NCBI GenBank assembly: GCA_951406725.2
Contig: OX597816.1
Location: 149,048,001-149,112,000, forward strand
DNA from: Octopus vulgaris
Taxonomy: Eukaryota
DNA length: 64,000 nucleotides
Reading direction: 5' to 3'
This document shows, in pieces, positions 5,726 through 61,035 of this stretch. Position numbers and translations under genes: made by a program. Position 1 is the first letter of the stretch; each line of letters starts with the position of its first letter. The notes beneath the pieces were generated by a model. The model was not told the origin of the DNA. It did no database searches and was given only the letters and a program-made list of their open reading frames with translations.

Positions 5726-6369
5726 ATCCATTGTCCCGTAGTGAGAAGTAAGTTTTATTTCCCTATGTTGAGAATGAAATGAGAATGAGATGTAAGGGGA
5801 CAATGTTTTTGAGATTCCGGTTTGAATGTAAGGAAGGTTTGAAAGTGTTCCCAACAGTTATTAGTTGTAGTGGTAGAGTGTTTATGCCAAATATGTACGT
5901 ATGCAAGTATATATATGTATGTGTGCCTGTATATATGTACAAAATCCACTGAGAAGGCTTTTGTTGGTCTGAGGCTACAGCAGAAGACACATACCAAGTC
6001 ACCACACAGTGGGACTGAACCCAGGACCATGTGTTTGGAACGTAGTTTGTTACCAAACAGCCACACCTGCCCCTATGTATGTGTGTGTGTGCTTACATGT
6101 GTATGGGTAGATATATTATGCATGTATATATGTGTATATATATGTGTACATATTACATGTACATCTATATATATACATGTACACATAAAATACAAAATAC
6201 AAAGTTATATCTTGATATCGCTAGTGATAACAATACTCAAAATATATAACAGACTGGAATTGTAGGCCCGTGTCTTGCAATTTCGATCAATTGGATCTTG
6301 TCCTCCCTCTTGTATAGAAGTGTGGCTACAATCCAGCCTACCTCTACTTCTGGGGGTGGGGGTGGCATT

Positions 6370-6790
6370 TTAAATTTTTATCTGGGACGTCCTACGTCCC
6401 AGATATAAAGGTAAAAATAAAATATTTCCACTTTGCAAGGTTTGAGTCAAGTACTCTCTTGCACACTCCGTTGACTCGAACCTTGCTTCTATTGTGGCGA
6501 ATTTACCGCCTCTGGTTAGATATCTTTCATAGTTGCACCACTTTTCGATGGTGCTTTCCTCCAGGTGTTCAAATCTTTTATTTTTCTCTATATTGTATAC
6601 TTTATAGACAATAGTCTTTTCTTTAATTTAATTTTTTATTTCGTTTGGTGGTGTTATCCTAGATTCACCGTCTTTGTCGGTGATCAATCCGTATTTCTTC
6701 CATTTTAATTTCAATGAGTTCGTGCCCGCAGATGGCTGCAGCGAAATTCATTTTTGGACTTTCTTCTATCGAAGGCATTCTAATGAAAAT
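6370..6790 (-). mobile_element. 5' fragment of a Tx1/L1-like LINE ORF1
   Basis: Manual translation WCNYERYLTRGGKFATIEARFESTECAREYLTQTLQSGNILFLPLYLGRRTSQIKI aligns with ORF1 pieces of the LINEs at 42.6 kb (NWGSKFATVQVRF) and 48.3 kb (TYLGRRTAKI). Confidence 0.7.
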
Positions 6791-16457: not shown

Positions 16458-17837
16458 TCAAGTAAGACCATCTGCTTTATATAAACCTGTATTTTTGACA
16501 TTGGTAACTTGTGTTGATGATAATGGTAATCTGTCCCCTTCTGCTGTAAAAAGTCCTACAGGATAGACACTTTCACTGCTACCATAAGTCACATTGTTGT
16601 CAATTAATGGAGTTGTTATTGTTCGATTTAGTGGTTTAGAAGGGTCTTCTTTTATGAGTCTAGATTGAGAACACAGTTTTCCTTCACTATATGACACAGG
16701 AGATAAGTCAGAAACTGGAGAACTTTCAAATACATTAGATTTTAATTTGGGTGATGTTCCATATATCTTATTTATTGTTGCTTTGCTATTTGTGGTATCT
16801 GAAAATGGTAAGCTAAAATCTGTAGTGGATATAGCTATAGAATTCAAAGGAGTGTTTAGCGCCTGAGAACTATCAGAAACTGAACTAGATGTGCAAGCTC
16901 TTTTATTCATTTGACCATATTTATCATCAGGTCCTACAGTCTCGATTTTTACAGTGGGAAGGATAACTGAACCAAATGGAGAGTTGCCACTGTTAGTGTC
17001 CAGAGATGCAGCCTCAAACTCTCGCTTAACGGTTCTGACTGTACCTTCTTTAAGCTGTGCTAATTCATTCTGGGAAATCTGCTTAATATCCTCTGTAGGA
17101 ACAGTTGAAACAGAAGATGGCATCTGCCTGGTATCATCAAACGCAGTGACTGTTGAAGTAAGTAGCTGACATGCTCCACTTGTTGTTGCTTTGCTATTTG
17201 TGGTATCTGAAAATGGTAAGCTAAAATCTGTAGTGGATACAGTTATAGAATTCAAATGAGTGTTTAGTGCCTGAGAACTATCTGAAACTGAACTAGATGT
17301 GCAAGCTCTTTTATTCATTTGACCATATTTGTCATCATCAGGTCCTACAGGCTCGATTTTTACAGTGGGAAGAATAACAGAACCAAATGGAGAGTTGCCA
17401 CCGTTAGTGTCCAGAGATGCAGCCTCAAACTCTTGCTTAATGGTTCTGACTGTACCTTCTTTAAGCTGTGCTAATTCATTCTGAGAAATCTCCTGCTTAA
17501 TATCCTCAGTAGGAACAGCTGAAACATCAGATGGCATCTGCCTGGTATCATCAAACGCAGCGACTGTCAAAGCAAGTTGCTGATGTGCTCCACTTTGAAG
17601 ATGAGCATCACACATATTTTGTAAGTCTTTCATGTCTAATTGTTTTGCAATGACTTTTAGCTGTTGTAAAATATTAAGATCAAGATCTAATAGTCCAGTA
17701 TACATGTATTCAGTAAAAGCCATTAAAGTTTCTGTGCTTACTTCAGGAAATTTCACTTCATAAAACTGAGAAGAGATGCATGTACTAATTACTGAGAACA
17801 GTTTTGGAGACACAGCAGACAAGACTATTTTATGGAC
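16458..17837 (-). CDS. BTB/POZ-domain protein paralog 1, last coding exon (C-terminal part of BTB, duplicated S/T-rich linker, conserved tail)
   Basis: tttcag|GTC acceptor; VHKIVLSAVS...FPEVSTETLMAFTEYMYTGLLDL...AKQLDMKDLQNMC is a BTB signature; 1380 nt open to TGA. Confidence 0.9.
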   Translation of the reverse strand, partial: VHKIVLSAVSPKLFSVISTCISSQFYEVKFPEVSTETLMAFTEYMYTGLLDLDLNILQQLKVIAKQLDMKDLQNMCDAHLQSGAHQQLALTVAAFDDTRQMPSDVSAVPTEDIKQEISQNELAQLKEGTVRTIKQEFEAASLDTNGGNSPFGSVILPTVKIEPVGPDDDKYGQMNKRACTSSSVSDSSQALNTHLNSITVSTTDFSLPFSDTTNSKATTSGACQLLTSTVTAFDDTRQMPSSVSTVPTEDIKQISQNELAQLKEGTVRTVKREFEAASLDTNSGNSPFGSVILPTVKIETVGPDDKYGQMNKRACTSSSVSDSSQALNTPLNSIAISTTDFSLPFSDTTNSKATINKIYGTSPKLKSNVFESSPVSDLSPVSYSEGKLCSQSRLIKEDPSKPLNRTITTPLIDNNVTYGSSESVYPVGLFTAEGDRLPLSSTQVTNVKNTGLYKADGLT

Positions 17838-18315
17838 CTGAAATATAGTAAATGATAACAGTATGTTTACAGCTTGCCAACAATACATTGATAGACACTT
17901 AAGAATCATGTTCATAAAATAGAAAAATGTAAGTTTGTTTTTCCAACTCTTACAAAAGCAATTGACTACCAAAAGTCGTAAGTCTCTGGAAGTTGATTTT
18001 AAACTTCATTCATTTCAAAGCGTTTCTTTTTCTGTAAAATATTCTATTTTATATTAGTAAACAAATGTTTCAGTAAAAGCTATTTTCAAGGATTGAATCA
18101 TAAAATTTTCTGATAATAATAAAACTTAAAGCATATCAGTATTTATATATAACTTGATAAAGGCTACACCTACCTTTAAGAAATATAGAGGGAAGCAGAA
18201 GAAAGAATAGCTTGATATTAAGCACATTAGAAATTAAGCATAATTTTTTAATTATCATGATAATGACATTGGAAACAGTTGATAAATGTGAAAAAGTTTA
18301 CAACTGTATACTTAC

Positions 18316-21021: not shown

Positions 21022-24000
21022 TTATTGCAGCGCTTCTTTGTAGACGACGTTTCTTGTTTTTGCGGATTGCCGCATATGAAGAGGTTTCGCGGATCTCCAA
21101 TACGTGAGCAACCAACGTAAAGTTGACCATGAGTAAAAACATCTTGGGTCAGGTTTAGTCCAACAACTTAGAGTGATTGGCCCTGAGCTTTATTTATACT
21201 CATGCCAAAACAGACTTTTATTGGAAATTGTTTGCATGTAAACTGGAATGGACTGTCAGACGGACTTAGACTGATTGGAGTTAGCAGTTTTGTCATGCCT
21301 GCAGATGGCCCGCTTAGAATGACTGTTGTGAGAATGCGAGTGCCAATATCTTTGATGATAAGTCTCGTCCCGTTGCACAGTTCTGGTGGGTCGATGTTTC
21401 GAAGCAGCATAACTGGAGTGCCAACTTTGAGTCGGAGGTCATGAGGTGGAAGTCCAGAAATTTGTAACGTGTTGAGGAATTCGGTGGGATAGTTGACAGC
21501 ATCATCAGCGTTGTTTGTAGTGTTGATGGACTTGAATGAGTGTTCGTTCCCAGGAATATGGTTGAGGAGATTTTGATTAATGGCGTCGACATTTGCATTG
21601 TGTGGGGCTAAAATGGCTCTACCTTGCAGCCAGTTGGAATCATGAAATTGAGCTTCAAGATCAGGAAAAACTACCAAAATTAAATCATCAATACTTTCAA
21701 CAAAATTTCCGAAGAGAAGACTAATATGGTCTGCATCGATTGCAGTTGCAGTTCCGTTTCCAACATCGAGTAATTGTCTGCAGAATACTTCAGTATCTGC
21801 GTCCCATTGCAAATGTACTCTCATGTTGGTGGTGAGGTGAAGTTTTTCAACATGACGCCAAAGGTAAGACGATGTGATGCATGCTTTCACTTCATCTGCT
21901 CGTGTGCCCCCAGTGATGACAGGAAGGGTTTGCCGGAAATCTCCAGCCAAAATAACTGTTGCTCCACCCATAAGTCTTGGATTTCGACGCAAGTCCTTGA
22001 GAGCTCAATCCAAAGCCTCAAAAGCCGACTTATTGCTCATTGTTGCCTCATCCCAAATAATTAGACAGCAATCGGAAAGGAGTTTACCTCTTGGCGTGCC
22101 TCAATCTATTTCGCAAGATGGATTCTCTTTCTTTGCAATAACCAAGGGAAATTTGAAGGCTGAATGTGCTGTGCGACCGCTATGCAACAAAGTTGCAGCA
22201 ATTCTGCTTGATGCAACTGCCAAAGCAATTCTCCTGTCTTTTCGCAGATTTGCGAGGAGAAGGTTGATGGCAAAAGTTTTACCTGTGCCATCAGGTGCAT
22301 CCAAAAAGAAAAGCATGCCTTCATTTGAAACGGCACTGGTGAAAATTCAGTTGTATGCAAGTTGCTGTTCAGGCAAAAGTTTTGGTTCATCTCGAGTCAC
22401 CATTTCAGTCAACTCTTCAATGTTATAGTCCAATTCAGAAATGTATTCTGAATCTAAAACGCCATCTCTGTAGACAGGGCTTGGAATACCGAAATGACAA
22501 ACACCATCAAATCCAGCAGCTCTGAGACGTCTGTCGATATCAAGTAGAGCCTCATAGTAGATCTCATTGTTGTATTCGCGTGCATGCAGTCTTCGCAAAA
22601 TATCTTCTGACATGCTGTCTTTGTGTGCCTCCCACAGTTGGAGGGGTTCGCTGACATCGCAAAATCGTAACATACTGCAAAACAATCGCCGCCTTTGTTT
22701 TGGCAGTTTACAATCAGCAGCCTCAACGCCAGGTGCAGATGATTGTCGTCTTCAAGAAGTCCGTGCCTCACACACACCTCCCTGTAAGTGGGACAAATTG
22801 TGCTGTCAAACATTCTGAGGTCAGCAAATGACTTGGGTCCTCTAACTTGATGCAGTAGGGTTCTCAAGAAGAAGCACTCTTGTGCACGTGGATGAACAGT
22901 GAAAAGACGTCCGATTGCATCACTTCTCTTTACACCGGGCCAATTATCGACATCTCCATTTTTCCTTCGACTATGTGATTTCTTTGACCATGTATAGTAA
23001 ACTGGTACATCGTCATAGAGAAGTGTTGCAGCAAATGCATCTCAGGAGCAAAGTTTGAAGAATGCCATAAATTTTGTCTCCAGCAGCTGTTGAGCGACAA
23101 TTTGGGCATTCCGCTCCGTGAAATAGGTGCGCTGCCCATTCTCCAAATGAACATCAATGAACTCGTAAATGTCAAAACCGAAAATCCTCCAAGCCGCCAC
23201 ATTGGAAGAAATGTATCACCCCATGACATATTGCTGGATTTCGTCATTTTGATTCATGCCACCGCTGATGCCAATCACCACCCTTGTTGATGTATTTGGA
23301 TATGTATTTGATGCTTCTGACAGAGGTGCAGCTCTCAACGTTGATGTGTGCTTTGAAGATTTTTGCGAGCAGGGGGCTGTAGGGCACAACCCAGCAGTTG
23401 TCAACGAAGTAAGTGACACCGTCTCTCTTTACCTGAACTGCAATGCCACCGAAATCAGGAGCGCGCCACCGATAAATGGGATAGCTGTGGGTTCTGGTGC
23501 AAGCTGTGCTCACGAAGTCTTTGGGATAATGCTTGCTGCATTTGTTATTCTCCATGCATGCTTTTCTGGGGTTGAGAGGAACACAAGGTCTGTGCAAAAG
23601 ATTGGTCAAAACAATGTTATGAAGCTCTGGATCAACGGTGGGATCTGGAAGCTCAGCACTGATAACTATCAATGTCTGCAGGTCTAATTTTTTCTTTGCA
23701 CCAAATAAGAATATGTGCATACGGAAGGCCCCGCTTCCGCCATTCCACAATGTACATCCAGGCATTAAGAGGACTGTAGATTTTCTCCTTCTTCAGCAAG
23801 GACATCAGGAGATTAAGCTTGAGTTTGAAGACTAATTTCATCTCAGGTCTTGAGTTCAAAAACTCTGCAGCAGTTTTTAGCTCACGGACGTAAGGGTGGC
23901 TGTAGTGAAGCATTGTTTGAAGCTCTGCAATGATATTGCGACTTAAAGGAGGGTTTTTGCTGCATCTATGAGAAAGTTCTTGCTCATGTCCACCCATGAA

Positions 24001-31797: not shown

Positions 31798-32766
31798 TCA
31801 CATAAGATCATCTGCTTCATATAAACCTACATGTTTAAGATTTGTATGTTGTGTACATAATGGTACGTTGTCCCTTCCTGCTGTAAAAAGTCTTATAGGA
31901 TAGACACCTTCATTACTACCAGATGTCATAATGTTCTCAATTGACTGGATAGTTGCTATACTTTGGTGTAGCATTTTAGATGCATCATTTTGTATGGAAA
32001 TAGACTGGGAAGACCTTTTCTCTTCAATGCATGACACAGGAGGTAAGTCAGAAACTATAGAGCCTTCAAATACATTAGACTTTAATTTACATGTTGGTCC
32101 ATATATCACATGTGATACTGTATTGCTTGAAACTGGAGTGGATATGTAAGCCTCATTGTTCAGTTGACCATATTTCTCATTATCAAGCCCTACAGGTTCA
32201 GTTTTCACTCTGAGAACAAAATCAGAATCATTTGAGCAGTCACCATATGTATTAGCATCCAATGAGTCAATTTCAGATTCCTGTTCAATGACACCAGCAG
32301 TACCATTTTTAACTTGTGCTAATGCAGCCTCACATATCTCTTGTTTAACATCAATGACTTGTGTAATGAAAGATGGAGTAGATTGAGATGTAACTGATGT
32401 GATGGATGATGAAGGCAGAGATGGTTGAACTGTTGGCACTGTGATATTGGTTGGAACTGGCAGACCGGCTTGTGTCTGGTTCTGCCTAAGATCAGTCGAC
32501 GGTTGGTTTATTTTGTTTATAAGATTGTTATCACACATTTCTTCAAATTTTTTCATTTCTAATTGTTTTGCAATGATTTTTAATTGCTGTAAAATATCTG
32601 GATCAAGATCTAAATATCCATTGTACATGTATTCTGCAAATGCATTTAAAGCTTGTGTACTAACTTCTTCTGGAAAGTTTATTTGGAGAAACTTCTGAGA
32701 GGAAATATTTGTACTAAATACTGACAATAGTTTTGGACACACAGCAGATAGAATAACTTTATGTAC
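31798..32766 (-). CDS. BTB/POZ-domain protein paralog 2, last coding exon
   Basis: tttcag|GTA CAT acceptor; VHKVILSAVCPKL...FAEYMYNGYLDL...AKQLEMKKFEEMC; 969 nt open to TGA; tail homologous to paralogs 1 and 3. Confidence 0.9.
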   Translation of the reverse strand, partial: VHKVILSAVCPKLLSVFSTNISSQKFLQINFPEEVSTQALNAFAEYMYNGYLDLDPDILQQLKIIAKQLEMKKFEEMCDNNLINKINQPSTDLRQNQTQAGLPVPTNITVPTVQPSLPSSSITSVTSQSTPSFITQVIDVKQEICEAALAQVKNGTAGVIEQESEIDSLDANTYGDCSNDSDFVLRVKTEPVGLDNEKYGQLNNEAYISTPVSSNTVSHVIYGPTCKLKSNVFEGSIVSDLPPVSCIEEKRSSQSISIQNDASKMLHQSIATIQSIENIMTSGSNEGVYPIRLFTAGRDNVPLCTQHTNLKHVGLYEADDLM

Positions 32767-33793
32767 CTGAAATACAGAAAATAATGAGAAATTTTTTTAG
32801 CCATCTAATAATTGAATTGCAAAACATTTTTAAATATTACAACTCAATTAAAACAAAAAAATATTTATTCCAAGAAACTTCATGGAAATATCAATTGAAA
32901 GGTAAAAAATATATTTATTCATTCATAAATTGTCACTAAAGTTTCTGATACTTTATGTATAAAAATGCTATATTTTGCAGTGAGAAACTTGATTCAAACT
33001 TCATTTATTCCACTAGGATATTTAATTAATCTCTCTCTATATATATAATAAGCCAAATCATATGGCTTTTTTGTGGGGTTCATCTCTTTCTGTCACACAA
33101 CAAAGAGGTAGAAGAAAGTAGTAAAATTTTGCTGGGAGATATGGAAGAAAAGAAATTAAGCATTATAAAGAGAGGTGGATGAGATAGAAAAATAGATACA
33201 TGTCAGACAAATAGAGAAATAGCTACCAGTTAGTTAGCTAGTCTGACAATCAGGTGTAGCCAACAGTGAAATATAGGGAGAGATGAAAGAGTGAGAGAGG
33301 AAGAGATAGTGTGAGTAAAAGAAAAGATGTGCAATAAAGAAAGAAACAGCTCTACAATATAGGCAGGTAAAAAGCTATCATGATGAAATAAGTAGATAAA
33401 GCAGTGACTGTGCTGAGAGAAGTGGAAAAGAGAGTTTTATAAAAAGAGGTGGATTGGATATACAAATAGAAAATGAAGCAGGACTTGAGGAAAAAGATCA
33501 TGAATTAGTGAAAGACCAGAAAAGAACATCAATGTTGGTATAAAATAAACTTTACTTTTACTTTGCAAAATATTAACTAATAAACAAGATGTTTGTCATT
33601 AAGAAAATCCAAACATTGCTAAAAATAAAGATCAGTAAAAATTAATAATTTTAACCATCATCTCTGGCATGAAAACAAAGCTTCTTGAAAGATGTGTATA
33701 CTTGAGATATTTTGAACAGTTACATTTTGAAAATTATGATGAGTCAAATAGAAAAAGAGATAAGCATTTTAAATGTCAAGACAAAACACTTAC

Positions 33794-41797: not shown

Positions 41798-43863
41798 ATG
41801 GCTACTGGTCACTACGAGGCTAAGGCGCAAGTCAAGCGTGACGCCAAAACAAAAAAGCAGGATTCCCTGTCACCATGCGCTGAACTTGACAGTTTGAACG
41901 CTACTAACACCACCACCATCAGCATCGACAACAGCAACAACTACATAACAAAGGTCGCAAGGCCAAGCACCGTCACCGCCACCAATGATTCCACCATCAA
42001 CACCGACACCAATGATTCCACCATCAACACCGACACCACCACCATGGCAGCTTCTGCTACCTCTGCTAACGATACCACTAACAACAACAACAAAACCAAG
42101 GTCGCAAGGCCAATCCCTGTCACCGCAACCAATGATTCTACCAACACCGACACCCTCCTTGACAACGCTTACGACGTTGAGTTCCCCATACTGCTTTCAC
42201 CACAATTTCATAAAGCAGGGGAAATGGGGAAAAACAACACGAACACAAATGTGAGCATGAACGCTAACATCGCGACCTCCACTCAAAAACTGGTAAACAA
42301 CCCTACTTCACAGTTATCTACTACTACGAACGACTCTGCCACAAACATCACCACCACCACCACCTCCACAAAAAACAATTTCGTGGAAGCCATACGACCG
42401 AAAAGAAGAATCCTAAAATTTACTCACCAACAAATACAAGACACAAAGTCCTTGCTCACCAAAGAAGGTGACACAATGCATTTAAATATTCCATAGAAGA
42501 AACACAAAAGAAGACCATCATTTACAGAATACTCAACACCAAAACAAAAAGACCAGAAAGCCTACCTAAAGGAAAAATTGAAAAGTGCCTCTCTTCCGTG
42601 TGGAAATTCCGAAATTATGTGAATTGGGGAAGTAAATTTGCTACCGTGCAAGTTCGCTTTCATACGGAAGAACTAGCAAAAAAGTTTTCAACCCTTACTC
42701 TGCGCACAGGACAGGTAACAATGGTTACGAAAGTTACGCAGAGTTACGAAAGTTACAATATACAATGTGCCGCCAGTAGTGAATACCTAGTGGCTGGTAT
42801 CGGCCATCTGCTTCGATATAGAAGAAGCAGATATTTTAGAAATAGCTGATATTCCATAGGAAAGCTGGACTGGTAAAATACTCGAAATATTGCTTCAAAT
42901 CTCCCAAGAAGCAATAAACAATTTACCATCCAGTGTTCAACTGGCAAAAGGTCAAAAATTGTATGTAGTGGTGGAGGACAGGAGGCCAAGATGCTATTTA
43001 TGCAACAGTGAGGCACACCTTAGATATGAGTGCCCAACTGCTGTCAGAAATAGGCAACAGCAACCACTCCCCAAACCTGGAAGGAGACCCGTGCTACCCA
43101 CACCACCTTCAACCCAAAAGACAGGAAAAACAGCGGACGATACAAAAACTGTTTCCCCCTCACCAACCACATCACCAAGAAGAGAATTACCTCCGACATC
43201 ACAACCAACAAAAGAAACAACATCACCACCAACATCAGAAGACAGACCAACACCAGCACCAAGAACAACAACCAAAAAAACAAATAACAATGACGAAAAG
43301 ACAAATTCTGCCCCTAATACCCCAACAACACAAACAGCACACAAAACAACAACACCTTCTACAAACACACATATAGATCCAAACGCTTTGCCTTTACCCC
43401 CTTCTGATTCGTCGAACTCGTCGTCCAACGACGAAAGTTCGACGGAATGGCAAATAGCCACAGGGGGTAAAAGGAAAAGACCAAAAAAGCCCACCAAACA
43501 AGTAAGTAAAGCAGGGAGATATTTAACTTCGGACAGCATCCCCTTAGACAATGAAAAAAAATCAATGACCCCGCAAAACCACACACACAACTAACAGCAA
43601 TAGACACGGACAATAAAAAACTAATGGATTACATTGCATCCAACACGAACATCTGCGAAGATGACTTTAAGACAATCATCCACGCACCACTCCACCGAAA
43701 CACATAAGAATTGTACACATAACACAAACACAACACCATACACTGAAAACCATATTTCCAAATGCGGTTGGGGGGTTTCAAAAATACCTCTCAAAAAAAC
43801 TATTCAAACATCTCCGCAAAGACACTACAAAAGATGAAGAAAAAACTGAAACTTTCGAAATGA
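41798..43863 (+). pseudogene. LINE A ORF1 (T/N-rich leader, RRM-like region, CX2CX4HX4C knuckle, P/T-rich tail); disrupted
   Basis: RRPRCYLCNSEAHLRYECP; several in-frame stops and frameshifts. Confidence 0.8.
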
Positions 43864-43937
43864 GTAAGTCACCTTCCCTCTTGCCTCTTGTCTCTTCCAG
43901 TGCAGTGTGTGAAACACAAATTTCTTAAACGTCAATT

Positions 43938-46900
43938 ATGCTTAAATTAGGTTGTGTGAATGCGCGTGGCTTGGCATCAGCTTGGAAACAAGGTTACCTT
44001 CTAAACAACATCAAGTCACTGAACGTGGATATGGTAGCTATCAGTGAAACCAGACTCAGCAAGCCGCGGGTCCTCGCGTGCATGTTTGGCGACCAATTTG
44101 ACATTTATTTTTCTCTCTGTCTGCCGAACATGGGTGGTGGAGGTACCGTGGTGCTTTTTCGAAAGAATCTAAATGTAAAAGTAAGAACAATATTCCTAGG
44201 CTGGTTGTCTTGGACGTGGATGGCAGAAATGGGTGTGCATTCTGTCTGATGGCAGTTTATGCACCGTCCTTAACGGGTCGGGCGGATTTCTTCAGACGTC
44301 TAGAGGTTTTCCTGGGTACGTCTAGACCTTTACTGTTAGTGGGGGATTGGAACGCTACCTTGGACACGCATATAGATTATGTGGGAATGGATAGGAATAG
44401 AAGGGGGTGTAAGTGCCTCAAAGACCTACTCAGACGTTTCCATTTGTCTGACAGGTTCCGACTCCACCATCCGAACGTGGACTTGGACAAACCGTGTCGG
44501 ATCGTCGAGATCTTATCTAGATAGAATTCTATGCAGGACAGCGGATAGGGATAGTGTAGGATGTCCACAATTTAAAATAGTCAGCTACACAGATCACAAA
44601 TTTGTGACGTGTACGCTCGACTTAGATAAGACACATAGACAGGGTCCCGGTTACTGGAAATTGAACACGTCGCTCTTAGCGCGACAGGTTTACAAGAACC
44701 GGATTAGCGAGCTAATTAAGAGGGCGCTGGCGGGAGCCGTCGTTAACAACCGCTGGTGGTTCGCCCTGAAAATGGCAATAAAATCGGAATCAATTAGGTT
44801 TAGCAAGGAATTAGCGATAGATCGAAATAGAGTAGAGGGAGACCTGGTTAAGAAACTAGAAGAGGCACTTACCACTGGCAGCACAACCAACGTGCTGGCT
44901 GCGAGGATGGCCCTCGACCAATACCTCAACGCCAAGCACGAAGGTTGTGTCGTCAGAGCTAAAATGCGTGCCTTAAGGAACGAAGCTGTGCGAGAGGCCC
45001 GGGTAGCGGAGGCGCAGCGTGGCAACAGAGCCACCATTCGGTCTCTAATAGATCAACAGGGATGCAGTTTACTCGAACCCGAAAGGATGTGTGAGGCCTT
45101 TCAACAGCACTTTGCTCGACTGTTTTGTGCGAGTGGTGGGTCGGAACGCGGGATGGATTTCAGTGCCTACCTGACCGACCTGCCGCGGCTCTCGGCAAAA
45201 GAAGCGGAGTGTTGTGAAAGTCCCATCACAGCCGCTGACGTGCGGGCTGCGCGAGTGATAAGTCGCCTGGATTGGATGGTTTACCCTACGAGCTGTATTG
45301 TCAAATGCCAGACTTGTTTGGCGACCTCTTGGCATCAGTCTACTGCAACTGGCAACAAAACGAGAGAATCCCTGGTTTCGTGAGCCGAGGTGCAGTGACG
45401 TTGCTGAAGAAAGATCCAAACAAGGGGAATTTTATAGATAATTTCAGGCCCATCACTCTGCTCAACGCAGATTTGAAAAAGTAATAGCCGAGAGGTTGGC
45501 GCTTGTCATTGGTAAACTGGTCGACAGGGCGCAAACATGCACCGTGCCGGGCAGAACCATACATGACAATCTCCATCTGATGCGCTACATTGTGGACAGG
45601 GTAGTTAAGGATTCTGACATGGGTGGGGCGCTGATCAATTTGGATCAGTCTAAAGCCTTCGATAGGGTCGACCATCGGTACTTGGCGGCTGGCTTCGGTC
45701 CCGTCTTCCGCGGTTGGATCGCTGCCTTGTATAGCGGCATCCGATCGGTGATTCGGGCGAACGGCCACCTGTCGAAACCGTTTGACATCACGCGTTCGGT
45801 CCGTCAGGGGTGTCCCCTGTCGGCGCTTCTGTATGTATTGACTCTCGAGCCGCTACTGCGGAAGCTGGCGACACTGAGGGGCATCCCATGGGAACTGGGT
45901 TGCGGGACGAGCGTGTCGGCATATGCGGACGATGTCACCGTCATACTGTCGAGCGAAAAACACATCCAGATGATAGGCGAGACACTAAGAAAATACGAAA
46001 CGGTGACGGGAGCGAGGATTAACCCGGAAAAGTCAGTGGGTTTGCTACTCGGCACCTAGAGAAGCAAGCCCATGCCGTCCGACTGCGGCTCAGTAGTGGG
46101 ACGCTGGACGGACGGACCGGTTAAATTGCTCGGGGTCTGGTTCAGTCCGAACCTCCAAATGGATAAGAACTGGAACGAGATCACGAATAGAGTGGTCGCT
46201 CTCAGCCAAACATGGGCCGAGAGAAAGCTGTCTCTAAAAGGTCAGGCGGAGGTGTCGAACGCGTACATCGCATCCGTCATCGATTACCGCCTGACCGTCG
46301 TGCCTTGTCCCGGCGCCACCATCACCAAACTGGAACGCATATTCTTCCGCTTCCTGTGGAAGGGTGGCGTTCCAATGGTGAGGAGGTCCATTTGCTGTCA
46401 ATATCCGTTGAATGGAGGACTGGGCATGCCGTGGTTGATGATGCGCTGAGACTGCGACATCTCTGGAACTTCATCGATGACGGTGAACAGGTGTGGGCGC
46501 CGTTTGTGAGGCGCGCCTTCCCGTAGCACGTCTCACTGACCGAAGTGCAAACGTGGATCAAGAAGAGACCGAAACTGGGCGATTGGCACCAAGAGTGTCG
46601 CCAAGCTCTACAGCAGCTCTGCCGACCGGGGTCAAACTTGTGCAACTTACAAACGACTAAAGCGTTCTATAGAGGACTAGTGGAGGGGAGGTCCGACGAC
46701 ACACTCGGGGCAAATCTGGTCGTCGACGAGAAATTCCTAACCCGCCTGTTCAGGACGACGTTCGGGCCGGGGCTTATGGATAACTTCCAGAAATCCCTGG
46801 CTTGGCAATGCTATCGAGACGCACTACCTGTTCGAGAGAAGAGCTACAGGCACGGTTCGAAAACCATCACCGGACCATCCTGCCCGAGATGCAGTCAGAG

Positions 46901-47298
46901 CGATGAAACCGTTCTGCACGCACTCGTGCAGTGTCCAGATATTTCAGAGCTGTGGACCTTTGTCGAGCAGCTGTTGTCGCGTGTAGGACGGGCCCGCTTA
47001 TCGGCCGAGTCTATCGTGAATATTGTTCCACCACCTTCCTTTAAACGGGAAGGGAAAACGGTTTTCGTTACCCTGATGGCTATGGCGAAATAATGTGTGT
47101 GGTGGACGCGTTTGAAAGGACTGCAAACAAACACCTTCCTCTGGTTAGTCTCTCGTCAACTTTTTCAAGTACCATTTGAAAAGGAGGATGAGAATAGAGA
47201 GGAAGGCTTTGTCGAACGAATGTTTTAATAAAAAGTGGGTAAAAGTGGCAAAAATGGTCAGTATGAAAGACGACACTATTTTAAGCGTAAATCTGTAA
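43938..47298 (+). pseudogene. LINE A ORF2 (AP endonuclease, reverse transcriptase, C-terminal zinc finger); disrupted
   Basis: CVNARGL, ISET, VGDWNA, SYLDRI, YTDHK, GPGYWKLN, FRPITLLNAD, LDQSKAFDRV, VRQGCPLS, AYADDVT, CPRC...ETVLHALVQC. Confidence 0.92.
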
Positions 47299-47412
47299 CC
47301 AAAACAGACAACGAGAGGTAAGGTGACTTACTCGTGTTCATTTTCGAACTGTCTGAGGTGACCTTGGTCTTTTTTGTAGGTTTTTCTTTCCAGGGCTACA
47401 CCTAAACTGTGA

Positions 47413-47499: not shown

Positions 47500-47759
47500 T
47501 TTATACACCACACAACCCACAGATCCCTATTAATCGAACGTTTTTTTTTTTCTTTGTGTCCCACCCATCCCACTTCGAAAAGAAAAAACTCTACATTGTA
47601 TTTCGTCCATTTTTATTCTGTGTTTAGCCCTGTGTGGCCACAATAAAAAGTCATGTATTTATGTGTTGTGGAATATAACGAAATTATGCCAGCAATGTCT
47701 CATTTTAAACTGCTTTCGGTTGCTTTATTCTCAATGCTCGTATATTTCAATTGATGCCT

Positions 47760-50700
47760 ATTTGTTATTGTAAGTTCGTTTCTGTGTGTGTTTTTTTATT
47801 ATTATTTGAACTGTTATCTTGCGACAAACAGTAATTTTCGCCCTACGGGGCAGAAAATTTCTGCATTTGTAAAATTTATTTCTTGTCATTTGTGACAAGT
47901 TCCCTTTTTGTACTACCATGGAGTGCGACCTCGCATCGAGAAAAGATTTTCCGGCAATAACAAAGGAAATGAAAAGGACAAAAAAAGTTTTTCGGCAGCC
48001 GTAGGAGGCAATGTCATTGAACTGGAAGTAGCAATGGACAAGCTCTTTCAGTTCAGAAAATTAATTGTAAAAAATGGTGATGAAACCAAGTTGGAACCGC
48101 CCCCGGAAACTGTACAGGCAATACGGGAAAAGACAGTGGTGTAAAAAGTTTTTAACGTCAAGGAAAAAAGAATCTCCGAGGTGAAAAATCAAATGGTGGA
48201 GCAATGTATGACTCCAATATGGAACAAAGTGCGCTACGTTAACCGAGGTGTACGAAGTACTACAGTAGAAGCACATTTCGAGTCTGCTAACATAGCAAAA
48301 GAGATTTCAACGCAGAGGAAATCATGTTGCTGCTGACATACTTAGGCCGGCGAACAGCGAAAATATTTGTGGAAGACATACCAGCAGGGTATGATGTAAT
48401 GTGGGCAGCAACGGCAGTGATATACGACGTGGAGTGCAAGATTACAATCCTGAACATGAGGATGAAGGAAGCCACAAACTGGAGGGGACAGAGTTTAGAG
48501 ATGGTTGTCCAAGGGGACAACCAGACACTCGAAAGTTTGCCCGATAGGGTCTCCGTAGGCGAAGGAATACAATTCGTGTATCGGTGGAGGGATGTAGGCC
48601 CAGATGCTTTAAGTGCGGGGAGAAGGGTCATGTACGCTCTACCTTCACGAAAAAAAAATAGTCGAGGTCCCTCCCCAAAACGAAGTGAGACAGGAGAGCG
48701 TTGCTCAAAAAAAAAAAGCAAAAAGAACAAAGTGAAAAACAAAATGAAGAACAGTAGAAAGAAGGAAAACGACCAAACGGTGATGAAATTTACAACTGTG
48801 ACATATAAACGCAAAAAAGAAAGCACCCCGGACTCCCCTCCCCAAATAAAAAGAAAAACAGCAAACACGCAAGAACAACACCAAAAAATTCCCCAATCCC
48901 TCCCAGCTAACACTACATTTGGAGGTCAGCTTTTTAATAAACCCACCCCACTGTGCTAAAAAGTTTTAAAAAGACTAACAAAATAATTTCGTTCAATGAT
49001 AAGAACGAAAAAGTACTTCGTTTAATCAGGGCTAATCGCCGCATAAAATTTTTTTAATGACTGGCGGGGAGCCCGACACACGTTACGCAAAAGTCGGAGA
49101 GGAGGAGTTGAAGGGAAAGCTCCTCCAGGAACACGTAAACAACAAAACTATAAAAGATGTTACTCAGGAAGTAATAGCTGGGAAGCTAATTATCAGCCCG
49201 GCAGCCACTCCAAACCAGAGCCCGGTGAAAAGCCCAGCAGCTACGGGGAGTGCTGGGGAAGCTGGCAGACAAAAACTGCCATACTCCTTCTCACAACAGT
49301 GAGTAAATTATTTTCTTTTCTTCAATGATTAAGTTAAGTTGTTTAAATGTGCGTGGAATTGGGTCGAGATGGAAACAAGCTTGTTTTCTGAACGACCTCA
49401 TGACATAGAATAGATGTTGTTATTGTAACCGAGTCCAAGATGAGTGGACCTCAAGCGTTCTCGCTTCTTCTGAGTAGTTACGAGAAATTTATTTCTCCGA
49501 GCCGAGGAGGGGGTGCAGGCGTAGTGGTTCTTGTCAGGAAGAACTTGGACTTACAGATAAGTACTGTCTTTCTGGACCCAGAAAGCAGGCTGGTTGTACT
49601 AGATGTGACTCATGTGAGTAAACAGTCCTTCAGGTTGGTAGCTGTCTACACTCCTGAGAAGTGTAGGCAGTCTGGTTTTTACGAGAACCTGGAGCACTTT
49701 CTAGTGACGTCTAAAACGTTAGTTTTGGTAGGGGACGTCAACACTATCCTCGATGCACGGGTCGATAGTGTGGGCTCAACTGATAGGAAAGGGAATCCTT
49801 GCCTCAAGGGTCTACTAGAGAGCTATAATCTAGTAGACCGTTACCGACTGGATGAGCTGAATGTTCCACAGTGGACGTGGAGTAACAACGACGGCTCACA
49901 CAGATCGTACCTAGATAGGGTATTTATTAAGGAAAGAGATAAGAATAGTGTTAGTTGTCCACAATTCTGTATTGTGCCTTACACGGATCACAAACTTGTG
50001 AAGGTGGAGCAAGGTGGAGGCCATAGTACAGAAGTTGTCTTGAAGGGCAGGACGGAGGTGGTGCAGGTGTTTATAGCATCTGTAATCACCTACCGCCTGT
50101 CCGTGGTACCTTGCCCCGATTTGTGGCTAAACAAGTTGGAACGACTCCTCTTCCGCTTTTTGTGGAAGGGAGGACATCCACTTGTGAAGCGCTCCATTTA
50201 CTGCCAGGAACCATTAAAGGGTGGACTGGGGATACCCTGGCTGAAGATGCGCAGATATGCATTGAGGCTGAGACATCTCTAGTGCCACCTGGAGGGTGAT
50301 AGGGTGTGGAGTCCGCTGGCGGAGGAGTTCTTGCCGCAACCGGCCTCTTTGGAGAGATTTAAACCCAGTCTCATTAAAAGATGTAACCTGACTTCATGGC
50401 AGAAGGAGTACCGTCAGGCACTCTGGCTGATCCACAAAACGAGCAAGGCTGGCAGCAGGAATACCACATCAGTGTTCTATAGAGGGCTGGTAGAGGCAAA
50501 AAACAATGACGTCCTAGGAGGGACTCTGGGGTTTAATGAGAACCAACTTGCCAACCTGTTCAAAAAAACTTTCAGGCCGAGGTACTTGGATAACCTCCAA
50601 AAATCCCTGACCTGGCAGTGCTATAGGAACGCTTTACCTGTTCAAGATAAGTTAGCCAGGCACGGAGTACCAGTGTCACCAACGTGTCCAAGATGTGGGT

Positions 50701-51310
50701 TGGACAATGAAACTGTCCAGCACGTTTTTGTACAATGTCGGGAGCTATCCAGCTTGATAAGTTACGTCGAACACGTGCTGTTGCATCTAGGACGAGTACA
50801 GCTGTCAGCTGAATCTATAATAAAGATGATACCGCCAACTGGACTCACAAAGAAAGGTAAGGCATGTTTTTACTGTACGGTTGCAGTACTGAAAGAGTGT
50901 GTTTGGAGGACGAGAATGGAAGGTTCTGTGAAAGGGTCCTTCATCTCTGCTGTCTTACTTCAGATACCATCTGAAGAGCAAGATGGGGTTGGAGAGGAAA
51001 TCCCTGCCACCGAGAGAATATGAGAAACGATGGAAGGATGTGATGAGAAAGTTGGGTGTTAGTAACCCAGCTTAATCATTGCTGAAAGGAAAAGATAGTT
51101 GCTGGGCCTTATAGGCTGCCGGGTTTCGATCTTTTAAACTTTTATTCGTTTTCTTTCTTTGTTTTATTTTATTTTAAAAAAGTTCTAGTTTAAAGGGAAT
51201 TAATCATTGTATAAAATATTTTTAAGTAAATTTTTAAAACGATATTCATACGAACTCATATAACATTTTTTGTTTTTGTTTGTCTTGTAATGTCCCTTTC
51301 TATGTAAGAT
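47760..51310 (+). mobile_element. Tx1/L1-like non-LTR retrotransposon B, internally deleted (lacks RT)
   Basis: Degraded ORF1 from about 47918; ORF2 starts ATG at 49325 (MIKLSCLNVRG); APE ends YTDHKLVKV and is joined directly to the post-RT LKGRTEVVQVFIASVITYRL; CPRC...ETVQHVFVQC; stop at 51073-51075. Confidence 0.85.
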
Positions 51311-51583
51311 CATTTTTTATCATAACAGTTTCGTTTTAAACTTCAAGAAAGAAAGCCTTCAAGTTTATAATGAGACATTGCTGGCATAATTTCGTTATAT
51401 CTATATACCACAACATAAATACATTCGGTACTATTTAAGAAGAGCAGTCCCGGTGAGCGCACTTGCGCTAGTTAGTCGTGACCAGTTGACCCTACAACGA
51501 CTACCTATCCTATAACAAATGTTCGTACAAATTCGGTTGAAAGTTATTAGAAGAACGTAAAATAACGTTTTAAGGGTATGATG

Positions 51584-52224
51584 GGATCTTTTTTCTTTTG
51601 AACGGCAGTTTTCAACACAATTTCTAGTCAACTAAACACTTTTAAACTTCGTATACTGGTAGAATGTGTCAAAATAAAACATTTTTTTCTCTTGGCTTTC
51701 TTGAGAAAATTGTAATTTGTAAGTTTAACGTAGTTTAATTTTTCGAATTTTAACCAATCCTATGCCCTGTATTGAGCTAAAATCATTTGCTGCATCTAAA
51801 ACTGAGAAAACATCCTGTCACCAACCCTAACCCTAAATTTTAGCCTTTCGTTTTTTTTTTTCATAATTGTTAAATTAATTTAAGGATAACAATTAAGGAA
51901 AAAAAAAAACGAAAGCAAAAGCTCAAAACAAAAACAAAACGAATAATTTTAGACACACACGTAACAATTAAATTAATTTAACAATTAAGAAAAAAAAAAC
52001 CCAAAAGGCTAAAATTTAGGGTTAGTGACAGGATGTTGTCTCAGTTTTAGATGCAGCAAATTCGAAAAATTAAACTACGTTAAACTTACAAATTACAATT
52101 TTTTCAAGAAAGCCAAGAGAAAAAAAATGTTTTATTTTGACACATTCTACCAGTATACGAAGTTTAAAAGTGTTTAGTTAACTAGAAATTGTGTTGAAAA
52201 CTGCCGTTCAAAAGGAAAAGATCC
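51584..52224. mobile_element. Foldback MITE (GGATC family) with 8-bp TSD GTATGATG
   Basis: TSD at 51576-51583 and 52225-52232; arms nearly perfectly complementary over most of their length. Confidence 0.92.
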
Positions 52225-55622: not shown

Positions 55623-56579
55623 TCAAGTAAGGTCATTTGCTTTATATAAACTTATACTTTTGACATTGGTAACTTGTGTTGATGATAATGGTAAACTGTC
55701 CCCTCCTGCTGTAAAAAGTCCTACAGGATAGACACCTTCATTGCTACCAGAAGTCACATTGCTGTCAATTGACTGAGTTGTTATAGTTTGATTTAGTGGT
55801 TTTGAAGGGTCTTCTCTTATGGGACTGGACTGAGAACACATCTGTTCTAAAATACATGATGCAAGGGATAAGTTAGAAACTAGAGAACTTTCAAATACAT
55901 TAGATTTTAATTTAGCTGTTATTCCATGTATTATATCTGTTGCTGCTTCATTTGAAACTGTAGATGTATCAAAATGTTTATTCAGGTGACCGTATTCGTT
56001 ATCTTCAGGCCCTACAGGTTCGATTTTCAAACTAGGGGCCATGCAAAAATTTTCAGAAAAGTTATTTTTTGTACTACTACTCAGTGATCCAATCTCAGAT
56101 TCTTGTCTGAAGACATTAACTTTATCCTTCTTAGCCAGTGGTAATTCAGTCTCAAAAGGCTCTTGTTTAATATCAAATGCTTGTGTAGTGATGGATGGAG
56201 TAGACTGAGATGTAACTGAAATGATAGATGATGATGATGGTAGAGGTGGTTGAACTGATAGTTCGGTCTGTGTGTTGTAATGGTCACCTAAGACAGTAGA
56301 TGTTGAAATATGTGGTTGAGATTCTTCATATGGAAGACAACTATCACACAGTTGTTCAAATTCTTTCATGTCCAAACGTTTTGCAATGATTTTCAACTGA
56401 TGTAAAATATCTGGATCAAGATCTAATAATCCATTGTACATGTATTCAGCAAAGGCATTTAAAGCTTGTGTACTTACTTCCTCTGGAAAGTTAATTTCAA
56501 GAAAATTGCGAGAGGGGATATTTGTACTAAATACTGACAACAGTTTTGGACACACAGCAGACAGGACAACTTTATGTAC
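55623..56579 (-). CDS. BTB/POZ-domain protein paralog 3, last coding exon
   Basis: tttcag|GTA CAT acceptor; VHKVVLSAVCPKL...FAEYMYNGLLDL...AKRLDMKEFEQLC; 957 nt open to TGA. Confidence 0.9.
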   Translation of the reverse strand, partial: VHKVVLSAVCPKLLSVFSTNIPSRNFLEINFPEEVSTQALNAFAEYMYNGLLDLDPDILHQLKIIAKRLDMKEFEQLCDSCLPYEESQPHISTSTVLGDHYNTQTELSVQPPLPSSSSIISVTSQSTPSITTQAFDIKQEPFETELPLAKKDKVNVFRQESEIGSLSSSTKNNFSENFCMAPSLKIEPVGPEDNEYGHLNKHFDTSTVSNEAATDIIHGITAKLKSNVFESSLVSNLSLASCILEQMCSQSSPIREDPSKPLNQTITTQSIDSNVTSGSNEGVYPVGLFTAGGDSLPLSSTQVTNVKSISLYKANDLT

Positions 56580-56826
56580 CTGAAACAAAGTAAATGATAA
56601 AACATGCTAATAACTTAACTTAAATCAAGGAGTAAGTCTTTATTTCTTGTTTTTCTCCCCCAAAATATTCAATTCCAAACAGGAAAGCAATTGTCTCTAA
56701 TGAAAGATTAGTAAAATTCAAAAGTTATTTTGATCTGTGTATCTTTATTAGCAATTTGAAAAAAATTATATCAATATGATGTACAGGTAACTTTAAAAAT
56801 CTTAAGAAACTGTTTGATAAATATTA

Positions 56827-57133
56827 TGTGGTTTTAGTAGTGTTATGGGCTGTGATGGAGCTATGTGGTGTTGGTGGAAGGGATTGCAGATGAGGTGGAC
56901 GGAAGTAAGGCTTGCAGGGGCCGGCGGAAGAGTCACAGGGGTGTGCGTGGGAAGGAACCACGTGTGGTCAGCAAGCACATGTGGCCAGTTTGAGCAAAGA
57001 TGGCAGAGAGACAAGACATGTTTAATTCATGAGAGTGACCGCTGATTTCACCGAGGTCAACAGGTAAGACCTTTTGTATTTCTTTCTCTCGTTTGCTTCT
57101 TTTTCTGTTGTCCTTTTCCTTCATCACACTACA
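56827..57133 (+). repeat. 5' LTR (307 bp)
   Basis: TGTGG...CACACTACA; matches the 3' LTR with substitutions and a 17-bp length difference. Confidence 0.92.
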
Positions 57134-57169
57134 AGCTATTTCGGTCCATAACAAAAAAAAAAAAAATGA

Positions 57170-57890
57170 ATGATGAGTGTTGTCCGTATTTTGAATGATA
57201 TGATCAAACCATTTTGCAGTGACACAGATGTAGTCGCTTGGTTGAAGAAGATGAAGTTGGTGGCGAAGCTCCACGGTATAAGTGACTTATCGAGTTTTAT
57301 ACCGCTGTACTTGGATGGTTCGGCGTTGGCGCTGTACCTAGAAATGGAAGAGAGGGACCGACTTAGCGTGGAGAAAATAGAAATCCGTTTGATGGAGGCC
57401 TTTGCAGAGGGAATGTTCGAGGCATACGCTCGCCTGGGGAAAACAAAATGGACTGGGGAACAGGTTGACGTATTTGCAAACGAACTCAGGAGATTGGCTA
57501 AACTGGCGGGATATGAGGGAGAATCGCTGGACCGAACGGTTAAGTTGGTGTTTGTGACTGGCTTTCCTGACCACATGTCGGTCGAGTTGCAGAAGCTGCC
57601 GAATATTCACTCGATGGTGATGGCAGACATTGTATCTCGGGCTCGCGTGCTAGTTTCGTGCTGCAGAACAACGTTGGTAGCAGCGACTTCAACAATTAAA
57701 AGTGGCCATGGAAAGAGCAGCAGAGAGGGGTCAAAGAAAGAACATGTGCGATCATTCAAAGGACAGAGTTTCCGGTGTCAGGGCCCGCACATGGTATGAG
57801 ACTGCGAGTCACCCAAGCCTGAGGTCATTTGCTACTGGTGTCGAGAAACGGGACATATAGCCAGCGAATGTTTGCGGGGAAATGGTCTGA
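57170..57890 (+). pseudogene. gag (capsid-like region plus two degenerate zinc knuckles, in-frame stop at 57797-57799)
   Basis: IKPF...DVVAWLKK...IPLYLDGSALALY; SFRCQGPHMV*DC and CYWCRETGHIASEC. Confidence 0.8.
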
Positions 57891-57924
57891 GGGAGACTAC
57901 TGCGCTGGTAGTTGTCCCTTTGGA

Positions 57925-60700
57925 TCAATAGAGGTGCGTTTATCGTCATTACCTGTAGTCGACATTCTGGTGGAGTGGAAGATGTCGCAAGCCCTTGCGA
58001 ACACGGGCTGTACAACGACCCTGATGACTCCAGAAGTGGTAGAGACGTGGAGTGCAGAAAGCAGTGTAAGTGCAGTCAACGGAAGAGAAGTACACTGTGA
58101 AGGCATTACAGATGCGCAGATTGTGGTGCAGGGAATAAGGCTGACGCTACGAGCAATTGTAGTTGGCCACTTGGTGGACGAGATTGACGTGGTGATGGGG
58201 ATGGATGCAATCACCCGTTTGGGAGGTGTCACTGTTAACAAGGCCAGTGTAACGTTCAGGTTTGCGGGGAACCCATGTATGGATGAGACTGTGCACTGAT
58301 GAGAACCATGAAGAAAAGTATGCTGCACACGCCATTGAAGACCAGGATTTTCGGGCTGTCTTCGATGGCCAGAGGTGGACAGTGGAGTGGCACTGGAAGG
58401 GAGAGCCCCCGACATTAAAAAATAAAGTGGGCTGCTATCAGCATACCCTAAAAGGAGATGCCAGAAGTGAGTTTGAGGGGGATGTGGAGCAGTGGATTAA
58501 GGAGGGCATATTGATCCCTTGGGATGAAGAAGAGAGCAGAGTCCTGCCACTGATGGCGGTGGTACAGACCACAAAGCATAAGGTCAGGCCAGTGCTTGAC
58601 TTCCGAGAGCTGAACAACCACGTATCATGTCATACAGGCGGCGAGGCCACAGATGTCTGCGGAGACACCTTGCGAGTGTGGAGACAGATGACAGGGGCCT
58701 CCACGATCGTCGATTTGAAGTCGGCATACTTGCAGGTACATGTGGCTGAGAAACTGTGGAAGTATCAGCTTGTCAGGTATAAGGGCCGGACATACTGTCT
58801 GATCAGGTTGGGGTTCGAGCTGAATTCAGCGCCAAAAATCATGGCAACAATTCTCAAGGCCATCCTGGGAAAGGTGGACAGAGTTAAAAAGGCCACCAAT
58901 TCGTACGTTAATGACATTCTGGTGGATGAAACTGTAATGCCAGCAGCGGAGGTCATAGGCCACTTGAAGAATATGGGACTGATCGCCAAGCTACCAGAGG
59001 CAATAGAGGAAGGTGCTGCACTGAGCCTCAAGCTATGGAGAGATAAGGCCGGCACATTGGTGTTCCAGCAAGGGAACGAGATCCTCGAACTGAGTGCCAG
59101 CATGAGTAGACAGGAACTGTTCTTGGTGTGTGGGAAGCTGGTTGGACACTACCCGATTGCAGGATGGCTCCGGACAACATGTAGCTTCATCAAGAGACGA
59201 GCCGAAGGAGTGAAGTGGAACGATAGAGTGGGGGAGAAGACGACCGACATGATACAGGAAGTCTTGGTCAGAGTGAGAGCAGAGGATCCAGTGAGGGGCA
59301 GTTGGTATGTTCCCAAATCAAAGAGTGGGATTGTATGGTGTGATGCCAGTAGCATCGCAATAGGGGTTGTCTTGGAAGTGGGAGGCGTCATGGTGGAAGA
59401 TGCAGCCTGGCTCAGGAAGACGGATGACTGCAATTATACCAATGTGGCGGAGTTGGATGCTGTGTTGAAGGGAGTGAACCTAGCCTTGAAGTGGGGGCTG
59501 CACACCATAGAAATCAGGACTGATTTGGCCACTGTACTTGGTTGGGTGACAGCAGTCATCACCATTGAGCGGAGGGTGCGAACCAAAGGGGCCACAGAGA
59601 TGCTGGTAAAGCGTCAATTGGGAATATTGCGTAAACTAACCACTGAGTTCAATCTGTAGCTGATCTTTGTGCCTTCCGAGAACAAGGCAGACGTCCTGAC
59701 CAGGGTAAAGCGAGTCTGGTTGCAGGTGCCAGAGGATGCAGAGCAGGCTGTGGCCGCAGTATGCCATCTGAGTGACTTGGAGTTGAGGAGATTGCATACC
59801 ATGCATCACATGGGGGTGGACAGGATGTTGTTCCTAGCTAGGAAAGTTGACTCTGATGTAACAAGATGGAGCGTGGTTAGCAGCTGTGACAGGTGGCAGT
59901 CCATCGACTCTGCTCCGGGCGAACATGAGGCGGGAAGTATTCCAGTGGATCACGACTGGCGGTGGACATAACACACTACTGGCAGGGGACATACCTCTCA
60001 ATGGTTGACTGCGGACCGGGGCGGTTGGCCATATGGAGGAGATGAAGACAGGGACCGCAGAGGAAATTGTGAAAGTATTAAATGAGATATTCCTGGAACG
60101 AGGCCCCGTGGATGAACTGCTTCTGCATTTCGCTTGGAGGTGCTGAAAGAAATGCTTGATGGGTGGCAGGTGAACCCCTTCATCAGGATGGCATACCGGC
60201 TGAGTGGAAATGGGGTGGTGGAAAGGCATCATCGTACCATCAAGACCATGGCAGAGAGGGGCCACATTTCACCAATCGAGGCTGTATTTTGGTACAATAT
60301 GTCGCTCAAGTCAGGACAGGCTGAGGAGTTGGTGCCACACGGAAATATTCAGGTACGAGTGGAGGCATCCATGTACTGCATCAATGTGACCCGGAACAGA
60401 GGAAGAGCATGCCTTTGTGCAGGTCGGAGAAGAAGTTTGGGTAAAACCCCCAAACGTATGGTGTACATCACGATGGGGAAAGGGAATAACCTCCATCAAT
60501 TCGAAGAACAACGTCTCTGTCAATGGTGTGCCACGCTACATTTTGGATGTACTGAAGATTGTCCATGCCTCAGTAGGCAAGAAGATGAAGCAAGCAGCAG
60601 CATGCCAGGAACTCAGGCTAGTCCCGGGGTCGCACGGTGACCACAGAGGGAGCGGCACCCTCCTCCCTGGTTGGCTGATTATGAAACCAGTTAAGGTGTG
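57925..60700 (+). pseudogene. pol (protease, RT, RNase H, integrase), inactivated
   Basis: ALANTGC (degenerate DTG), RPVLDFRELN, IVDLKSAYLQ, SYVNDIL (YxDD changed to YVND), VWCDASS, AELDAV, SGNGVVERHHRTIK; stops and frameshifts. Confidence 0.88.
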
Positions 60701-60745
60701 AGTTTGGGAGCGAGGAGTGAGTGGGAAAGCCAGTTGTAGGGGGCA

Positions 60746-61035
60746 TGTGGTGTTAGTAGTGTTATGGGCTGTGATGGAGCTATGTGGTGTTGGTGGAGGG
60801 GATTGCAAATGAGGTGGACAGAGGTAAGGCTTGCAGGGGCCGGCAGAAGAGTCACAGGGGCATGCATGGGCAGGAAGCATGTGTGGCCAGTTTGAGCAAA
60901 GACAGCAGAGAGACAAGACGTGTTTAATTCGTGAGAGTGACTGCTGATTTCGCCAAGGTCAACAGGTAAGGCCTTTTGTATTTTTTTCTCCTGTTTGCTT
61001 CTTTTTCTGTTGCCCTTATCCTCCATCACACTACA
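60746..61035 (+). repeat. 3' LTR (290 bp)
   Basis: TGTGG...CACACTACA followed by TSD TATTA. Confidence 0.92.

Follow-up and report, generated by a model that had tools for sequence, protein, structure and literature searches.

In this study, we analysed a LINE copy in a 64,000-nucleotide stretch of Octopus vulgaris DNA (the window) together with its relatives, and found that the region around the ORF2 start codon is complementary to the region around the ORF2 stop codon. Sequence comparison establishes the complementarity itself, its register relative to landmarks in the proteins, changes on both sides between families, and restriction to one clade; on the same footing, the complementarity belongs to the whole LINE clade and not to a single copy.

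The LINE B element and its copy in the window

By the domains of its ORF2 and ORF1, the element, here called LINE B, is an L1/Tx1-group LINE. In its intact relatives, ORF1 includes a zinc knuckle, and ORF2, of 1132 aa, comprises endonuclease, reverse transcriptase (RT), and zf-RVT; in one of them, L042, Pfam recognizes Exo_endo_phos, RVT_1, and zf-RVT in ORF2 and zf-CCHC in ORF1 (E 3e-05), and the top PDB match of this type of ORF2 is human L1 ORF2p (E 4e-66). Membership in the Tx1 clade fits the domains and the target preference (PMC4494074). Target-site duplications of 9-18 nt were present at 6 of 13 copies examined, and a relative at 56% comes from Argonauta hians. The L042 subfamily occupies a single insertion site, with a 17-nt duplication, inside a repeat that appears hammerhead-like by eye and has no Rfam match; an empty version of this site is seen in contigs, and copies recur every 5.4-5.7 kb (G000:C2:73.045-73.072 Mb). 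Rfam gave no match at gathering score in L042, L143, L347, or L126.

The window copy is dead: translation and tblastn reveal stops and frameshifts in ORF1 and ORF2 and the loss of ~1.6 kb of ORF2 (aa ~229-782, RT included), so that the loop between the paired regions measures 1.75 kb here versus ~3.4 kb in full-length copies. The insertion target is common to L031, L034, and L039. A splice origin of the internal ORF2 deletions in this copy and eight others was rejected, the deletion ends being without GT-AG. The features of the copy are as follows.

47700..47711 (+): target-site duplication, left copy; right copy at 51331-51342, 11/12 alike
47712..51330 (+): LINE B copy, L1/Tx1 type, dead (translation, tblastn; ends approximate)
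49195..49206 (+): left arm of outer helix P4, in the ORF1 end; predicted partner 51114-51125 (minimum free energy [MFE] fold of a 2294-nt RNA)
49232..49243 (+): left arm of helix P3, in the ORF1 end; predicted partner 51096-51107 (MFE)
49299..49304 (+): 5' splice-site-like GTGAGT enclosing the ORF1 stop TGA (49300-49302) (motif scan)
49311..49333 (+): left arm of helix P1, spacer and ORF2 ATG (49325-49327) (RNAduplex, window scans, MFE)
49325..51075 (+): ORF2 remnant, endonuclease fused to the C-terminal part with zf-RVT; deletion joint near 50001-50010
51071..51093 (+): right arm of helix P1, ORF2 TAA (51073-51075) and 3' UTR start (RNAduplex, MFE)
51096..51125 (+): right arms of P3 (51096-51107) and P4 (51114-51125), 3' UTR (MFE)

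Predicted pairing between the ends of ORF2 in LINE B

A preliminary description of this DNA had placed two complementary arms at 49302-49335 and 51069-51103, with an 11-bp perfect core, and proposed a long-range RNA duplex that loops out ORF2. The positions of both arms, and of the ORF2 ATG and TAA within them, proved correct, as did the core, which pairs 49323-49333 with 51071-51081. With RNAduplex, the arms give -28.6 kcal/mol over 27 pairs, whereas dinucleotide shuffles give -9.2 +/- 2.6 (z -7.5; 0/1000 as strong), and with windows fixed on the start and stop codons the energy is -34.9 (z -7.4). None of 336 other windows pairs better with the LINE B start window than the stop region does. 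Ranked by raw energy over the 7875 window pairs of the element, the core falls outside the top 12, as pairs rich in GC reach lower energies; the case therefore rests on position and covariation rather than on energy alone.

The MFE fold of the LINE B window RNA (2294 nt) holds 72 long-range pairs, including P1 (49311-49331 with 51073-51093), P3, and P4, and P1 is the inner one of three nested predicted helices that connect the end of ORF1 and the beginning of ORF2 with the ORF2 stop and the 3' UTR. The preliminary description understated the extent of the pairing, which is predicted to continue into two further outer helices, and it also passed over the donor-like motif at the ORF1 stop and the dead state of this copy. 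The same helices appear in the MFE folds of all three full-length copies that were folded (~3.9-kb RNAs, with 71, 86, and 81 long-range pairs); nested helices looping out ORF2 are presented here as a prediction of folding models. Within family B, both ends are present in 33 of 38 stretches around start-region matches, and the complementarity persists from one subfamily to the next. The young L042 subfamily has TGG in place of TAA, which still allows pairing through G-U, and its ORF2 ends three codons further downstream. The preliminary description had named absence from the family consensus, or a pairing no better than that of shuffles, as evidence against the duplex; what we found is retention across subfamilies of family B and, for the window copy, a strength reached by none of 1000 shuffles.

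Covariation across ten families

A zf-RVT search of the host genome (G000) recovered ten related families with 53-91% ORF2 identity, which form one clade (SH-aLRT 100 in a quick-method tree) with a sister clade at about 40% identity; given their common ancestry, they are not fully independent samples. One of them, LINE A, also lies in the window. It has about 56% ORF2 identity to LINE B and resembles it in layout with different letters, its features being the following.

43862..43875 (+): LINE A ORF1 end with GTAAGT; 14-nt perfect complement of 47320-47333
43937..43946 (+): LINE A ORF2 start, ATG 43938-43940; predicted partner 47280-47289
47280..47333 (+): LINE A right arms around the ORF2 stop (47296-47298) (window pairing scans)

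With windows fixed on protein landmarks, a matrix of cognate and non-cognate combinations gave the cognate start/stop pairing as the best of its row in 7/7 sequence groups, and the shuffle z ranged from -2.7 to -7.7 in 11/11 representatives. Among about 500 windows (336 for the deleted window copy), the stop region was the best partner in 7 of 11 representatives and within the top 3% in the others; the signal is modest in L137, L152, and L155, where 10-14 of about 515 windows do equally well. Of 12 representatives, 8 have an ungapped register of 36-38 with no realignment, two have 26, and one has 40; in L125 it is absent and the pairing arm deleted, and L370 has a variant start arm and lacks its 3' end. 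Pairs form in 154 of 180 in-register cells, compared to 53-82 (29-46%) when the arms are slid by 1-3 nt, and 12 of 18 columns show two-sided change compared to 4-8 when slid, although the register was picked family by family, which favours the unslid counts. The exchange of CAATG/CATTG for CGATG/CATCG was excluded from the count of compensations, as CpG decay yields the same change. At the level of loci, 94 of 102 that could be anchored reach z <= -2 (79 distinct arm pairs; some loci overlap). The sense duplex is stronger than the antisense one in 12/13 cases, and the cells include 19 G-U versus 10 A-C. Covariation in ten families strongly supports a conserved long-range duplex, still a predicted pairing, that would loop out ORF2.

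The arms lie in coding sequence, and the encoded amino acids differ between families; the letters of the arms differ as well, while position and register stay. In all families the register is anchored to the first ORF2 codons. Three families, for their part, have the ORF2 stop 3-6 codons further downstream. For LINE A and L155, both with moved stops, windows anchored on the stop reach z of just -0.6 and -1.8, respectively.

As an outgroup, we took 80 metagenome L1/Tx1 loci, 35 of which have a complete long ORF and 25 of which could be anchored and tested; none of these 25 distant loci reached z <= -2 (range, -1.5 to +2.1), although two of them, L286 and L287, attain the window rank of the weakest G000 families. 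A first metagenome scan and a viral scan returned no match. An ADAR footprint in the arms was considered and rejected in the absence of an A>G excess (9 A>G versus 7 T>C; 3.75 versus 3.55 per 1000 in ORF2).

These data bear on the alternative that the complementarity arose by chance, from base composition, or through a single inverted duplication, and has no function. Strong raw duplexes are indeed frequent in these elements, and some apparent compensations (CG to CA or TG, in both arms) could have arisen by CpG decay. Yet position and register are constant with different letters in ten families, the pairing is absent from the 25 outgroup loci, and the slide control together with the comparison of cognate and non-cognate pairings largely refutes this explanation, which we consider highly improbable.

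The donor-like motif and families without ORF2 or its AUG

Of 86 loci, 80 carry a donor-like motif, GTRAG[TA] or GTAGG, in the 100 nt that precede the first conserved ORF2 motif, at or just past the ORF1 stop; the background for GTRAGT is 0.054 per 85 nt. The motif is also found in 11 of 12 loci of an abundant ORF1-only (HAL1-like) family (at least 40 matches; L156:1040-2450 [-], L341-L352), where it is followed by a hairpin and a 3' terminus common to the autonomous families, and where ORF2 and P1 have been lost together. Since these 11 loci retain the motif unspliced, the family did not arise by a splice at the donor. Across 11 copies, its hairpin shows one two-sided and two main one-sided changes. 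In L156 there is, in addition, a short internally deleted derivative with an identical 3' end.

The L152 family, which is young (40 matches at 95-100%), lacks an AUG in the spacer and at the ORF2 start in all 19 anchored loci (of 20), and its first in-frame Met lies ~170 codons into ORF2. One copy is nevertheless open for 1138 codons, and the helix is kept with its register unchanged (e.g., L396, L373-L392). We read L152 as a natural candidate for non-AUG initiation. Elsewhere, calicivirus TURBS reinitiation has a UGGGA motif 40-90 nt ahead of the upstream stop, and mammalian L1 ORF2 is able to start without an AUG. Re-initiation at mammalian L1 ORF2 is described as unconventional (PMC5972666).

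Possible roles of the duplex

We propose that the duplex gates ORF2 translation and places the ORF1/ORF2 junction beside the 3' tail, a model that we regard as about evenly balanced between right and wrong. The arms would zip together the ORF1/ORF2 junction and the region of the ORF2 stop and 3' UTR, leaving ORF2 as a 3.4-kb loop. Because the left arms of the outer helices are ORF1 coding sequence, ribosomes ending ORF1 would open these helices and then halt shortly before P1, through which only rare re-initiation, tolerant of a missing AUG, would pass. A ribosome ending ORF2 would open the right arm, so that the new ORF2 protein would be freed beside the 3' tail hairpins it must bind, and re-zipping would hold ORF2 output low and favour action on its own RNA. 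Both the gating after ORF1 termination and the hand-over of the protein to the 3' tail are steps that we infer. Start-codon occlusion, one of the roles put forward in the preliminary description, does not suffice as the sole role, as L152 keeps the helix in register without an ORF2 AUG, whereas translational control of some kind may still apply. Together with the stops moved in three families, L152 indicates that hiding a codon is not the conserved feature. Gating of translation, in turn, leaves the conserved donor-like motif unexplained.

Two further explanations were considered. The duplex could act as a structural scaffold on which the RNP assembles or target-primed reverse transcription takes place, with ORF2 looped out, the ORF1 end, donor-like motif, and 3' UTR hairpins forming one RNA domain, and any effect on translation secondary. 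The persistence of the helix despite AUG loss and stop movement speaks for a scaffold, as does the ORF1-only family, which joins the donor motif straight to a hairpin whose loop resembles, by eye, that of a GTGGGG hairpin in the 3' UTR of L131, L137, L140, L142, and L152. We nonetheless judge a scaffold unlikely, in view of the tie between register and first ORF2 codons in every family, the lack of the GTGGGG hairpin from the B group 3' UTR, the variation of the outer helices between groups, and the consensus fold of the ORF1-only family, in which the outer ORF1-end/3' UTR helix is unsupported. Alternatively, the duplex could serve splicing or U1 binding, either by stapling the ends of a 3.4-kb intron to yield an ORF1-only mRNA or by setting a U1 site near the poly(A) signal. 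The excess of donor-like motifs over background speaks for this, as do perfect AAG/GTAAGT sites in L137, L140, and L142, where the motif is not needed as a stop, and stretches in the 3' UTRs of LINE A and L155 that look by eye like a pyrimidine tract with AG. Against it, a jump from donor to 3' UTR occurred in none of 90 loci recovered by ORF1-end queries; in contigs assembled from presumed RNA runs, none of the joints listed (6 and 16 others were left out) lies at the donor, which contigs cross unspliced; no acceptor conserved across families is apparent by eye; and the ORF1-only family retains its motif. We therefore hold a role in splicing or U1 binding to be unlikely, about as much as a scaffold. 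Back-splicing of ORF2 was also rejected, as no conserved acceptor before ORF2 or donor after it was found by eye. Deletions in L251 and L234 start at the donor-like motif and end in microhomology rather than at AG.

Returning to the gating of translation, a bolder version of it is conceivable, though we would not expect it to be right: the ORF2 loop could be part of one RNA switch, comprising the ORF1 stop, the U1-type motif, and the 3' tail, that permits a single round of ORF2 synthesis without need of an AUG and passes the enzyme on to its own tail. If true, this would provide an RNA-structural basis for cis preference.

Relation to known systems

How LINE ORF2 is made from a bicistronic RNA, why it is scarce, and how it targets its own RNA form a long-standing open question (PMC3894237). 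The clade described here supplies a defined helix together with naturally occurring compensatory changes, a family without the AUG, and a derivative reduced to ORF1, and with the helix and these variants available, the question of ORF2 translation becomes directly testable by compensatory mutations. The comparative evidence argues that the complementarity is real and conserved, and the function given here is our proposal. The preliminary description knew of no such duplex in L1/Tx1 elements, and our survey of titles and abstract openings likewise found no published description of an ORF2-spanning duplex in a LINE.

Tombusviruses and barley yellow dwarf virus (BYDV) rely on long-range pairing to the 3' end for their polymerase genes, and their readthrough and frameshift elements resemble the LINE arrangement in that the ORF1/ORF2 junction pairs with a 3' element about 3.5 kb away (PMC3542737). 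They differ in producing fusion proteins (PMC3542737), whereas the predicted LINE duplex is long and covers the start and stop regions themselves. An ORF1-ORF2 fusion by readthrough or frameshift is ruled out in our families by frame variation, frames 0, 1, and 2 relative to ORF2 all being found among the stops of intact ORF1s. SART1 ORF2 requires RNA structure, and SART1 coupling and mammalian L1 termination-reinitiation share with our elements a bicistronic RNA and low ORF2 after ORF1, structure mattering in SART1 (PMC3894237, PMC5972666). In SART1, however, an overlapping UAAUG is followed by a structure downstream (PMC3894237, PMC5972666), whereas here the partner lies 3.4 kb away and a spacer of about 8-67 nt separates the ORF1 stop from the ORF2 ATG in place of an overlapping UAAUG. 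CYC5/CYC3 cyclization in Ty1 is likewise long-range intramolecular pairing in a retrotransposon RNA, but Ty1 is an LTR element in which the pairing joins the genome ends and acts in reverse transcription, not around one ORF (PMC7969010). Zebrafish L2 ORF2 proteins bind their own 3' stem-loop (PMC4176376). Closest in composition are the target-preferring Tx1-clade LINEs, with an EN-RT-zinc ORF2, a CCHC ORF1, and shared targets with duplications (PMC4494074), and the half-L1 HAL1, an ORF1-only derivative (PMC5753468); the parts of these accounts available to us do not describe an ORF2-spanning duplex or a donor motif (PMC4494074, PMC5753468), and the term "secondary structure" has 0 occurrences in the available text of PMC4494074.

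Other features of the window

The left flank of the LINE B copy (47655-47711) reappears inverted just past its right end, at about 51354-51425. Further right, 51590-52219 is a MITE-like inverted repeat with 99-nt arms that are 98% complementary, and about 56830-61035 is a decayed LTR-type retroelement with two similar terminal repeats by eye and matches to RVT_3 and DUF7047. Three ORFs with BTB/POZ domains lie on the minus strand (16461-18005, 31801-32796, and 55626-56606) and are probably a cluster of host paralogues hosting the LINE insertions. The minus strand also carries a PIF1-like helicase fragment, possibly of Helitron origin (21171-22004), and a truncated ORF1 of another related LINE (6286-6666).
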